From Escherichia coli (GTDB lineage Bacteria; Pseudomonadota; Gammaproteobacteria; Enterobacterales; Enterobacteriaceae): DNA of 38,030 nucleotides. Each line of letters starts with the position of its first letter. Positions within the stretch are counted from its first letter, which is position 1. Of this stretch, positions 6,311 through 17,035 are shown piece by piece. The notes beneath the pieces were generated by a model. It was not told where the DNA came from. It did not search any database and was given only the letters and a program-made list of their open reading frames with translations. The translations under genes and the position numbers were made by a program. Where the stretch lies: NCBI RefSeq assembly GCF_003334315.1, contig NZ_QOWR01000046.1; one strand, 5' to 3'.

Positions 6311-7662
6311 TCTTCTCTGACTGGCCGTGGCGTCACTGGCGGCAAGTGCGGGGAGAAACCATCGCCTTACGTCTTAATGACGAGCAACTCAACTGGCGCG
6401 AGCTTTGTGCTCGCGTCGATGAATTAGCCTCCGGATTTGCGGTGCAGGGGGTGGTTGAGGGCAGCGGCGTGATGTTGCGGGCGTGGAATACGCCGCAAAC
6501 GCTGCTCGCCTGGCTGGCGTTACTGCAATGCGGGGCGCGGGTGTTGCCCGTGAACCCTCAGCTGCCGCAACCGTTGCTTGAAGAATTGCTGCCCAATCTG
6601 ACGCTGCAATTTGCGCTGGTGCCGGATGGGGAAAACACGTTTCCGGCATTAACGTCGCTGCACATTCAGCGGGTTGAAGGCGCACATGCCGCTACGTGGC
6701 AGCCGACGCGTCTGTGCTCAATGACGTTGACCTCGGGTTCTACCGGGTTGCCGAAAGCCGCTGTCCATACTTATCAGGCCCATCTTGCCAGTGCCGAAGG
6801 GGTGTTATCGTTGATTCCGTTTGGCGATCACGATGACTGGTTGCTCTCTTTACCGCTGTTTCACGTCTCCGGTCAGGGAATTATGTGGCGCTGGTTATAC
6901 GCTGGTGCGCGGGTGACGGTGCGTGATAAACAGCCATTGGAGCAAATGCTGGCAGGCTGTACTCACGCTTCACTGGTGCCAACACAACTCTGGCGTTTGC
7001 TGGTTAACCGCAGTTCCGTTTCCCTGAAAGCGGTGTTACTTGGCGGCGCGGCTATCCCGGTCGAGTTGACGGAACAGGCGCGCGAGCAGGGGATTCGTTG
7101 CTTTTGCGGCTATGGTCTGACCGAGTTTGCCTCCACGGTGTGTGCGAAAGAAGCCGACGGCCTGGCAGACGTTGGTTCGCCGCTGCCGGGTCGGGAAGTG
7201 AAAATCGTTAATAATGAAGTGTGGCTGCGGGCTGCCAGTATGGCAGAAGGTTACTGGCGTAACGGGCAACTGGTTTCACTGGTTAATGACGAAGGCTGGT
7301 ACGCTACGCGCGATCGCGGTGAGATGCATAATGGCAAGCTGACCATTGTCGGACGTTTAGACAATCTATTCTTCAGTGGCGGAGAGGGTATTCAGCCGGA
7401 AGAAGTCGAGCGCGTAATTGCTGCACATCCTGCGGTTTTGCAGGTGTTTATCGTCCCCGTTGCCGACAAGGAGTTTGGTCATCGACCGGTGGCGGTGATG
7501 GAGTATGACCACGAGAGCGTTGATCTTAGTGAATGGGTGAAAGATAAGCTGGCCCGTTTTCAGCAACCGGTGCGTTGGTTAACGTTGCCGCCTGAACTGA
7601 AAAACGGCGGTATTAAAATTTCACGTCAGGCGCTAAAAGAGTGGGTGCAACGTCAGCAATAA
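6307..7662 (+). CDS. menE: o-succinylbenzoate-CoA ligase (adenylate-forming enzyme)
   Basis: 451-aa ORF, 4-nt overlap with menC; [12 protein letters not shown]-binding motif. Confidence 0.92.
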
Positions 7663-7771
7663 TTAACCCTCCGTTTCACTTCTCATTTCAGCCATTCCAT
7701 TGCCGTTGATAAAGAGTTTATCTGTTAATCTGTAAATTGATGTGAAAACTCTTAGCAAACAGGATAATGCA

Positions 7772-8038
7772 ATGGAATGGCTGGTCAAAAAATCGTGCTG
7801 CAATAAACAAGATAACAGACATGTACTTATGCTCTGCGATGCTGGCGGCGCGATAAAAATGATCGCCGAAGTGAAGAGTGACTTCGCCGTGAAAGTGGGG
7901 GATTTACTCTCGCCTTTGCAGAATGCGCTTTATTGTATTAATCGTGAAAAGCTGCATACGGTGAAAGTCCTCTCGGCAAGCAGTTATAGCCCCGATGAGT
8001 GGGAACGGCAGTGTAAAGTGGCAGGGAAAACTCAGTAA
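7772..8038 (+). CDS. pmrD: Signal transduction connector protein PmrD (polymyxin resistance)
   Basis: 88 aa from ATG at 7772 ([18 protein letters not shown]...); the track ORF starts further upstream at 7742 in the same frame. Confidence 0.85.
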
Positions 8039-14242: not shown

Positions 14243-15400
14243 TTATTGTCCTGCGAGTTGCTGAAGGGCTGTGATGACATGGTCGGCATCGGCGGTAGTC
14301 ATATCCGGGAACAGCGGCAAAGAACAGATGCGTTCGCTATTCCATTCGGTATTCGGTAACGACAGCGTGGGAAAACGCTCGCGATAATATTTTTGTGTGT
14401 GAGCGGCGCGGAAATGTAACCCGGTACCAATGCCTCTTTCTTTTAACGCTTCCATCAACGCATCGCGACTGATACCACAACGTTGTTCATCGACACGAAT
14501 AATAAACAGATGCCAGGCGTGAACGTGCGGCCAGGCGGGAAGGCTTAATGGCTGAAAGGGGAGAGCTGCCAGTGCTTGCTGATATTGCTGGGCAATTTCG
14601 CGCCGACGGGTGTTGAGGTGCTCTAATTTGACTAACTGTGTCAGGGCAATCGCGGCGTTAATATCGGTCAGATTGTACTTATAGCCCGGTGTTAAGACTT
14701 CAGCCTGCGGTGCACGGCCCCAGGTTTGTCTGTCATAGGCATCGACACCCAGACCGTGAAATTTCAGCATCCGTAGCTGGCGGGCAAGGTTTTCATTATC
14801 AGTTACAATCAGGCCACCTTCAGCACAGGTAATATTTTTAATGGCATGAAATGAAAAAATAGCGGTACCTTTTGCGCCAATATGTCGCCCTTTGTAATAC
14901 GTACCGACGGCATGGGCAGCATCTTCGATAACTGCGATGCCGTAACGTTCGCCAATGGCGCGAATGGCGTCAATATCTGCTGGCGCACCGGCATAATGCA
15001 CCGGAATGATGGCTTTAGTGCGTGGCGTAATGGCTGACTCGATAGCTTCAGGCGTGACCATCAGCGTATCGCGGTCGACATCCACCATTACCGGCGTTGC
15101 ACCCAACAAGGAAATCATATTGAGGGTTGAAACCCAGGTCAGGGAAGGCGTAATCACTTCATCGCCCTTGCCAATTTTCAACGCCATTAGCGTGATATGC
15201 ATTCCGGCGGTGGCTGAACTGACCGCGATGGCATGCTGATTTCCCGTCAACTGGCAAAAAGCTTGCTCAAGCGCCTGATTCTTCGGACCGGTTGTGATCC
15301 AACCGGATTCGAGAACCTCTTTAACTGCAGCGAGTTCCTCCACGCCCATTGCTGGTCGCGAAAAAGGCAAAAATTCTGACATTGCTTTTCCTTCCGCCAT
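14243..15400 (-). CDS. arnB: UDP-4-amino-4-deoxy-L-arabinose--oxoglutarate aminotransferase (PLP-dependent)
   Basis: ORF 14243..15415; start chosen at the [13 protein letters not shown] (15400, 385 aa); alternative ATGs at 15415 and 15382, the latter with the best Shine-Dalgarno (GGAAGGA). Confidence 0.85.
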
Positions 15401-15480
15401 TGAATACCTGTCCACTTATATTTGCTATAAAGAGTGTTGTGTATATTTTGCCATTTGGAGCGAAATTTTAAGGATAGAAT

Positions 15481-15497
15481 ATTAACTTAACCTTAAG
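15481..15497 (-). promoter_or_regulatory. Candidate PmrA (BasR) box upstream of arnB: CTTAAG-N5-GTTAAT direct repeat on the minus strand
   Basis: Minus-strand sequence CTTAAGGTTAAGTTAAT about 80-95 bp upstream of the arnB start; matches the YTTAAK-N5-YTTAAK consensus except for one position in the second half-site. Confidence 0.5.
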
Positions 15498-15689
15498 AAA
15501 CTAATATTAGACGTAAATATTGAAATTTTTATATTTTTTCTTATTTAGGCTTTGCATTTGGCAAAATTTTGAGGCATTTTGCCGACATCGTAGGATTTTT
15601 AATATTACACCAACTGCGAATTATCGCCAGAAATGTAGCTCAATTTCACGGTAATTGTCTGGTTGCGCTTGTCTATAGGTGGAGTTTAC

Positions 15690-16292
15690 GTGTTAGCTTT
15701 TTGCCGCTCTTCGTTGAAGTCAAAAAAATATATCATCATTTTACTGGCGCTCGCTGCAATTGCCGGACTGGGTACTCATGCCGCCTGGAGTAGCAATGGT
15801 TTGCCACGTATCGACAATAAAACACTGGCCAGACTGGCACAGCAGCACCCGGTTGTCGTTTTGTTTCGTCATGCTGAACGTTGCGACCGTTCAACCAATC
15901 AATGCTTGTCAGATAAAACAGGTATTACGGTTAAAGGTACCCAGGATGCCCGTGAACTGGGCAACGCTTTTAGTGCTGATATCCCTGATTTCGATCTTTA
16001 TTCCAGTAATACCGTCCGGACCATTCAGTCGGCTACCTGGTTTTCAGCGGGTAAAAAATTGACGGTAGATAAACGACTTCTTCAGTGCGGTAATGAGATT
16101 TATAGTGCAATTAAGGACTTACAAAGCAAAGCGCCTGATAAAAATATCGTTATTTTCACCCATAATCATTGCCTGACATATATTGCTAAAGATAAGCGTG
16201 ACGCGACATTTAAACCTGATTATCTGGATGGTTTAGTCATGCATGTAGAAAAAGGCAAAGTTTATCTGGATGGGGAATTCGTTAACCACTAA
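15690..16292 (+). CDS. ais: Ais protein (PmrG-like, putative lipopolysaccharide core heptose(II)-phosphate phosphatase; histidine phosphatase fold)
   Basis: 200 aa from GTG at 15690 preceded by TAGGTGGAG; signal peptide-like N-terminus; RHAER motif. Confidence 0.85.
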
Positions 16293-16756: not shown

Positions 16757-17035
16757 AGGAGTATTCCTTATAAATAAAAAAGAAACCATGAGAATACGGT
16801 AACTCAGAAATATGTGAAAGTGACAGTAATCTCTTTTGCGATGATAACTGCACTTATTATTATTTTTGTGTGTATCGATAAAGTGTGTTTATTTTTTCGG
16901 CGTTTAATTATTTAAGAAGTATTTAGTTACAATAAGTGACTAGATCCCTTTTTTCGCTCATTGAATCCTCTGTGCCAGGCAGTACAATCCCGCAGCTTTG
17001 GGAATTTTGATTAATTGCTTGTGGGAAAGGGGATA

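Follow-up and report, generated by a model that had tools for sequence, protein, structure and literature searches.

L-Ara4N modification of lipid A makes Escherichia coli tolerant to polymyxin and colistin, and the PmrA/BasR box of the arnB promoter is where the signals Fe3+, low pH, and low Mg2+ (the last via PmrD) switch this modification on. Activators of the PhoB/OmpR family recruit RNA polymerase from sites overlapping the -35 region. In promoters of the PhoB/PhoP type, a direct repeat bound by an OmpR-family protein replaces the -35 hexamer, its half-sites being 11 bp apart from centre to centre and its end lying ~10 to 12 bp before the -10 hexamer.

The closest described systems are the pbgP promoters of Salmonella enterica (pmrH/arnB/yfbE) and Klebsiella pneumoniae. 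The Salmonella PmrA box has been defined as CTTAAG-N5-XTTAAT, where X is any base, and the half-sites are bound head to tail by K. pneumoniae PmrA, as seen by NMR (PMC3973317). Footprinting in K. pneumoniae revealed the box TCTTAATATTATCCTAAGC (PMC3973317), and the PmrA footprint on pbgP reaches from -91 to a downstream edge at -22, counted from the start that depends on PmrA (PMC2565834). PmrA footprints are on record for Salmonella too. Two dRNA-seq data sets of Salmonella SL1344 place the primary yfbE/arnB start at 2401611, with the upstream sequence CACCTTAATTTCTTAATGTTAATTTAATCTTCATCCAGTAGGGTTCAGCTA, and the start of the divergent ais gene at 2401492, with the printed sequence ...TGCTTTGCTTTCGCCGAAAGTTTAAGGCATTTTATGCATG (PMC4643027, PMC3963941).

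The E. coli locus resembles both systems. The Salmonella pbgP box, CTTAATGTTAATTTAAT as compared with CTTAAGGTTAAGTTAAT in E. coli, is orthologous, lies 99 nt from the arnB ATG, and has the same orientation. The two species also have in common a 10-nt gap between box and -10 hexamer and a 5' UTR of 76 nt, and in both the divergent ais/pmrG promoter has the form TTGCnT-17-CATTTT. They differ in that the distance from the box to the ais promoter is 10 nt shorter in Salmonella, where the divergent starts are 119 nt apart as opposed to ~129 nt on opposite strands, as predicted, in E. coli. Box1 of K. pneumoniae pbgP (CTTAAT-N5-CCTAAG) consists, like the E. coli box, of direct repeats that are arranged head to tail and separated by 5 bp; its second half-site is CCTAAG rather than GTTAAT. 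Klebsiella pbgP differs further in carrying an extra PhoP box along with another promoter that depends on PhoP, and it lacks a divergent ais gene. Close relatives of K. pneumoniae pbgP (L045, L049, and L059) show the arrangement found in E. coli, a box followed after 10 nt by TAnnnT. The same holds for the Raoultella site, whose core is identical to that of TCTTAATATTATCCTAAGC. As in promoters of the PhoB/PhoP type, tandem hexamers take the place of the -35 element in E. coli, while the half-site itself is different and has a TTAA core.

The box is the already known PmrA/BasR site of arnB and has been pointed out in the E. coli promoter in print (PMC10729948). Its role is textbook regulation, and confirming it adds little. 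The comparative additions are modest: the geometry of box, 10 nt, and TAnnnT is nearly universal in Enterobacterales, and the G that begins the second half-site appears to be neutral. In addition, an ais promoter without a box of its own can be defined, which raises a testable question, namely how one box relates to two divergent promoters. A further by-product, for specialists, is that the box and the core promoter in the arnB direction are kept where arnB is not the neighbor of ais.

The stretch of DNA analyzed here (the window) comprises 38,030 nt of E. coli chromosome. Positions 15300 to 15800 are annotated as arnB and ais and match 5,419 of 5,426 complete E. coli genomes. A RefSeq record that is 100% identical to the window starts arnB at 15382 on the minus strand and ais at 15690 on the plus strand. 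An alternative upstream ATG at 15400 is the older arnB start and is still used in the K-12 record; the left boundary at 15401 in the first-pass annotation corresponds to this older start. The spacer measures 307 bp with the RefSeq start and 289 bp with the older one, and it contains 33% G+C as compared with 52% in the window, as well as phased T-tracts; its earlier description as an AT-rich divergent spacer of ~290 bp is accurate. RefSeq annotation and translation of the open reading frames likewise bear out the identities proposed for arnB, ais, and pmrD and the position given for pmrD. An Rfam search of positions 15300 to 15800 returned no match. The features of the region are collected in Table 1.

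Table 1. Window coordinates of genes, the PmrA/BasR box, and observed or predicted promoter elements
Feature	Coordinates	Strand	Basis
pmrD, PhoPQ-to-PmrAB connector	7772..8038	+	ORF translation
arnB coding sequence, 379-aa form	14243..15382	-	RefSeq ATG at 15382
Predicted arnB P1 start, ~15458	15456..15460	-	Homology with Salmonella SL1344 yfbE start 2401611
arnB P1 -10 hexamer TAAAAT	15465..15470	-	10 nt downstream of box; conserved TAnnnT
PmrA/BasR box CTTAAG-GTTAA-GTTAAT	15481..15497	-	Sequence, weight matrix, invariant alignment columns, Salmonella start site
ais -35 hexamer TTGCAT (predicted)	15552..15557	+	Conserved TTTGC block; Salmonella TTGCTT at -35..-30
Possible weak second arnB-direction -10 CAAAAT	15566..15571	-	Homologue of Salmonella secondary yfbE start 2401520
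ais -10 hexamer CATTTT (predicted)	15575..15580	+	GCATTTT invariant in 12-genome alignment
Predicted ais start A15587 and 103-nt 5' UTR	15587..15689	+	Salmonella start-site homology
ais (pmrG) coding sequence	15690..16292	+	GTG start at 15690

The reverse complement of positions 15481 to 15497 reads CTTAAGGTTAAGTTAAT, with half-site 1 (CTTAAG) at 15497 to 15492, the spacer GTTAA, and half-site 2 (GTTAAT) at 15486 to 15481; the repeat had been given exactly, in sequence, coordinates, and strand, in the first-pass annotation. Compared with the loose consensus YTTAAK-N5-YTTAAK, the box has a single mismatch, in the G that opens half-site 2. With up to one mismatch allowed, this consensus occurs 3 times in the window, where 1.89 matches are expected, and 17% of the sequences obtained by dinucleotide shuffling of the spacer contain a match; a match to it is by itself no better than chance. 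The box also fits the Salmonella form CTTAAG-N5-XTTAAT exactly, a pattern that arises in only 0.12% of the spacer shuffles (0.0012), and the combination of box, 10 nt, and TAnnnT arises in 0.7%. We further used a weight matrix trained on 38 distinct orthologous sites, all from arnB promoters outside Escherichia, in the scan of both strands that had been suggested for this locus. The box scored 22.8 bits, which equals the training median, while the runner-up in the 38-kb window reached 13.4 bits; read on the ais strand, the box itself scored 11.3 bits. The box is far beyond chance, as becomes visible only once position and conservation are counted.

Another one-mismatch match to the loose consensus, TTTAAGAAGTATTTAGT, is found at 16911 to 16927 on the plus strand, where it abuts the TACAAT -10 hexamer of a mapped promoter, that of yfaZ. 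Because it lies directly against this hexamer, without the 10-nt gap, it has probably arisen by chance.

The position of the box relative to a core promoter was assessed in a comparative set of 81 loci, comprising 80 arnB loci across Enterobacterales and the window. In 69 of the 81, TAnnnT is found exactly 10 nt after the best box-like 17-mer upstream of arnB, against a background of 3% per position for this pattern, and there is no peak at any of the other offsets. These loci contain 47 distinct combinations of box and -10 hexamer. The latter varies (TAAAAT, TAGCAT, TAACCT, TACTTT, TAAATT, and others) while its T, A, and last T are kept, which is the mark of a -10 element under selection. In alignments of Escherichia, Citrobacter, and Salmonella, the chief island of conservation in the part of the spacer close to arnB consists of the box and the -10 hexamer, and the intergenic alignments have invariant columns at the TTAA cores of the box and their flanks as well as at the T, A, and final T of the -10. 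Of 5,426 complete E. coli genomes, 5,228 carry the same 38 nt across the -10 and the box, and strains that are ~3% divergent over the region have no substitution in the box or in the hexamers of either promoter.

The G at the first position of half-site 2 had been proposed to be a deviation that tunes affinity. This is unsupported, as the position varies freely among orthologues: A, C, G, and T occur 10, 31, 16, and 8 times, respectively, in 65 distinct orthologous sites. The G occupies a naturally variable and most likely neutral position.

The arnB and ais promoters were both assigned from conservation, and the Salmonella start tables then confirmed the two assignments. Relative to the Salmonella yfbE/arnB start at 2401611, the box CTTAATGTTAATTTAAT occupies -39 to -23 and TAGGGT occupies -12 to -7. 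The 5' UTR measures 76 nt to the MSDF ATG, and it is also 76 nt long in the MSEF/MSDF counterpart of E. coli, whose predicted 5' UTR (15383 to 15458) follows from this homology. The predicted arnB promoter P1 has no -35 hexamer, and the box, at -39 to -23, occupies that region. The first-pass annotation had held that a functional box should overlap the -35 region or sit just upstream of it; the overlap is what we found, with the box ending 10 nt before the conserved TAnnnT and the Salmonella orthologue placed at -39 to -23. The footprint edge at -22 in K. pneumoniae also fits a box that ends at -23.

In position and architecture, the box matches both the Salmonella site and the sites related to the one footprinted in K. 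pneumoniae. It shows every property by which a PmrA box is recognized in sequence, and binding of BasR~P to the exact E. coli DNA is predicted. We consider it highly probable that phosphorylated PmrA (BasR) uses the 17-mer as its operator in the main arnB promoter, in line with the earlier proposal of a PmrA/BasR site controlling arnB and as suggested by the weight matrix, the conserved geometry, and the Salmonella start; the part played by ais is treated below. In the proposed mechanism, a PmrA~P dimer would place its two DNA-binding domains head to tail on CTTAAG and GTTAAT. From ~-39 to -23, the box would stand in for the -35 hexamer of P1, and PmrA would presumably recruit the sigma-70 holoenzyme to TAAAAT (15470 to 15465), a polymerase contact suggested by knowledge of the family. 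Transcription of arnBCADTEF would then begin near 15458.

Two other explanations of the box have to be weighed at this point. It could be a functionless TTAA-rich match that arose by chance in A/T-rich DNA, as the 17% of spacer shuffles with a loose-consensus match and the lack of enrichment in the window might suggest. However, this reading is contradicted by the weight matrix, the conservation, the promoter geometry, the Salmonella starts, and the near-invariance within E. coli; the comparative data refute it, and its probability is negligible. Alternatively, the box could mainly be a target of QseB, with bound PmrA blocking RNA polymerase, as in a repressor model put forward for EPEC (PMC10729948). 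QseB~P indeed gel-shifts a 60-mer that contains the exact box and the -10 hexamer, the only gel shift that we found for an oligo with this box, and a pmrA qseC double mutant has elevated arnB and a 16-fold higher colistin MIC (PMC10729948). On the other hand, E. coli arnB-lacZ is raised 31- to 72-fold by constitutive basS/basR alleles (PMC8151780), and an E. coli gfp reporter driven by the arnB promoter requires pmrA (bioRxiv 2020.05.05.080051). PmrA also activates the orthologous promoters of Salmonella and Klebsiella (PMC2565834, PMC3973317), and a box at -39 to -23 that is followed by a 10-nt gap in the absence of a -35 hexamer, as in the 69 of 81 loci, is the architecture of an activated promoter. 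The QseB model is accordingly regarded as very unlikely for this site, and activation of arnB by PmrA is retained as the preferred reading.

The E. coli start-site data sets were also searched. The Cappable-seq files yielded no match for an arnB or ais start site, and the table of Kim et al. 2012 contains no induced start for either gene. The only arnB start in that table is located 691 nt upstream, at 2363241 in NC_000913.2, corresponding to ~16091 on the minus strand of the window. It is antisense and lies inside the ais coding region.

The ais gene is restricted to Escherichia, Salmonella, some Citrobacter, and Intestinirhabdus, and 14 ais-bearing spacers were collected. Besides the box, the sole conserved block on the ais side of these spacers is TTTGC-N17-GGCATTTT, with a constant gap of 17 nt in 12 of the 14 genomes. 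The exceptions are L087, which has the variant GCGCATTTT, and L095, in which the pattern is unmatched. In Salmonella, the ais start at 2401492 has CATTTT at -12 to -7, TTGCTT at -35 to -30, and a UTR of 104 nt. By homology, E. coli ais is predicted to have its own weak sigma-70 promoter, TTGCAT-17-CATTTT, with +1 at ~15587. When the ais-side block was compared by eye with the sigma-54 (GG-N10-GC) and sigma-28 (TAAAGTTT-N11-GCCGATAA) patterns, no conserved match was seen; the block proved to coincide with the sigma-70 -35/-10 pair of the mapped Salmonella ais start.

Facing the ais promoter is a possible second -10 in the arnB direction, CAAAAT, whose Salmonella counterpart is TAAACT; without the first T, the E. 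coli version may be inactive. We also observed a direct repeat, GCGAAATTTTAAGG / GCAAAATTTTGAGG, at 15460 to 15473 and 15561 to 15574. The copies are 101 nt apart; the first contains the -10 of the main arnB promoter, and the second is aligned with the TAAACT -10 of the secondary Salmonella start at 2401520. The pair of arnB-direction -10s may explain this repeat. A tandem duplication of ~100 bp as the origin of the two collinear short repeats was rejected, as the intervening sequence displays no similarity by eye.

No PmrA box was found at or near the ais promoter in E. coli or in the 13 other ais-bearing genomes. The earlier failure to identify a second box oriented for ais is therefore confirmed by the 14 genomes and by the ais-strand weight-matrix score of 11.3 bits. 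A TTTAAT half-site at 15598 was discarded as a candidate ais box: it is solitary, unconserved, and downstream of the predicted ais start. For E. coli, the literature treats pmrG as a gene that PmrA activates. Relative to the predicted ais start, the arnB box extends from -106 to -90 in E. coli, with its centre (15489) at -98, and from -96 to -80 in Salmonella. In all 14 genomes, the box has the same orientation and lies 10 nt from TAnnnT.

Six of the ais-bearing genomes have no arnB beside ais. In five of these (L084, L085, L086, L088, and L095, namely Intestinirhabdus alba, C. rodentium, a record labelled C. freundii, and two further assemblies), menE or pmrD takes the place of arnB. In the sixth (L087, labelled Citrobacter tructae; positions 1 to 1500), ais is divergent from a PMT-family gene (ArnT-like, PF02366). 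All six retain the orientation of the box, its distance class, the 10-nt gap, and TAnnnT, while the surroundings have diverged, which means that the box is kept with ais independently of the arnB neighbor. In L087, the box, 10 nt, and TACTCT form a promoter that faces the PMT-family gene. In the menE and pmrD genomes, the same arrangement with TAnnnT points away from ais, and nothing downstream is conserved; we also considered whether, in the loci in which arnB is absent beside ais, the arnB-direction promoter might lead into an ORF or a small RNA, and rejected this, there being no conservation past the -10. Measured from the box centre, the ais -10 lies 65, 73, 76 (in five genomes), 78, or 86 nt (in five genomes) away. 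These spacings mostly step by one helical turn, and 2 of the 13 (73 and 78) are off phase.

CRP activates transcription from -61.5, -72.5, -82.5, and -92.5, in a manner that depends on the face of the helix. On the ais side, the box centres at ~-77, -88, and -98 are likewise about one turn apart, and two genomes are off phase; the resemblance to the CRP model is an analogy only, and we know of no contact between PmrA and the alpha subunit of the polymerase. Shared control of ais is plausible, since the box stays with ais whatever the neighbor and since the spacing steps by about one turn. The same bound PmrA might thus also activate ais from ~-98, dependent on the helical face and across a spacer rich in A/T-tracts. 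The distance of -98 is far for a direct contact with polymerase and counts against activation of ais, and retention of the box without a neighboring arnB could have another cause. On balance, comparison of these sequences leaves control of both arnB and ais through the single box about evenly poised between true and false.

Two competing accounts concern ais. In one, the box serves arnB only, and ais responds to PmrA indirectly or via an unrecognized, noncanonical site. The box does lie 90 to 106 bp upstream of the predicted ais start and is oriented toward arnB (22.8 as opposed to 11.3 bits), and a half-site-like TTTAAG occurs directly upstream of the ais -10 in several relatives, though not in E. 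coli. Yet in E. coli this half-site reads TTTGAG, and other genomes lack it; none of the 14 genomes has a full box on the ais side. Moreover, the box is kept by ais where arnB is not the neighbor, and the spacing between box and ais shifts mostly by ~10 to 11 nt. We regard a box for arnB only as possible and less probable than shared control. PmrA could also relieve H-NS-type silencing of the A/T-rich spacer without contacting polymerase at the ais promoter, which would be compatible with the mechanism proposed for arnB. The low G+C content of the spacer relative to the window and its phased T-tracts speak for such a role, as do the distal and flexible positions of the activator, which are typical of anti-silencing. 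However, spacing by whole helical turns fits a geometric requirement better than displacement of a silencer, and relief of silencing is considered unlikely.

Within the reading of shared control, one detail deserves mention. Where arnB is not the neighbor, the arnB-direction -10 is retained along with the box, and simple distal activation of ais does not require it. It is tempting to assume that the box and this -10 form one conserved bidirectional module needed by ais, although on the sequences compared this is doubtful, somewhat more so than a box for arnB only. If it were true, activation of ais would need more than PmrA binding, i.e., a PmrA-polymerase complex at the divergent promoter or transcription-driven supercoiling.

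Elsewhere in the window, no PmrA weight-matrix site above 8 bits was found upstream of pmrD (7600 to 7770), and the sequence of that interval hence gives no indication that PmrA feeds back on pmrD; such feedback has been described for Salmonella (PMC2565834).

Several loci of the collection are rearranged. In E. coli strain 720632 (L093, NZ_CP025842.1), an IS1A element abuts ais in the order menE - IS1 - ais, and neither pmrD nor any part of the arn operon or the spacer is present, from which it follows that this strain is without the L-Ara4N pathway and the ais promoter. E. coli strain 2452 (L092, NZ_CP031833.1) carries an 817-bp tandem duplication of the 5' part of arnB and its promoter. The duplication junction coincides with base 1 of the box; in the intact arnB copy, half-site 1 is therefore ATTAAG in place of CTTAAG, and the upstream DNA is different. 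In Citrobacter amalonaticus (L007, ~2190 to 2400), an insertion of ~210 bp in the arnB 5' UTR has displaced the box, which lies at -327 relative to the ATG. The insertion contains ...GAGTACGTGACTGGGGTGAGCG... and resembles an enterobacterial repetitive intergenic consensus (ERIC) element. Finally, two Phytobacter loci (L014 and L020) have the box-like sites CTTAAGTGAACGTTAAT and CTTAAGGTTGAGTTAAT 32 nt apart upstream of arnB, and the 10-nt/TAnnnT geometry is seen in the proximal site only.
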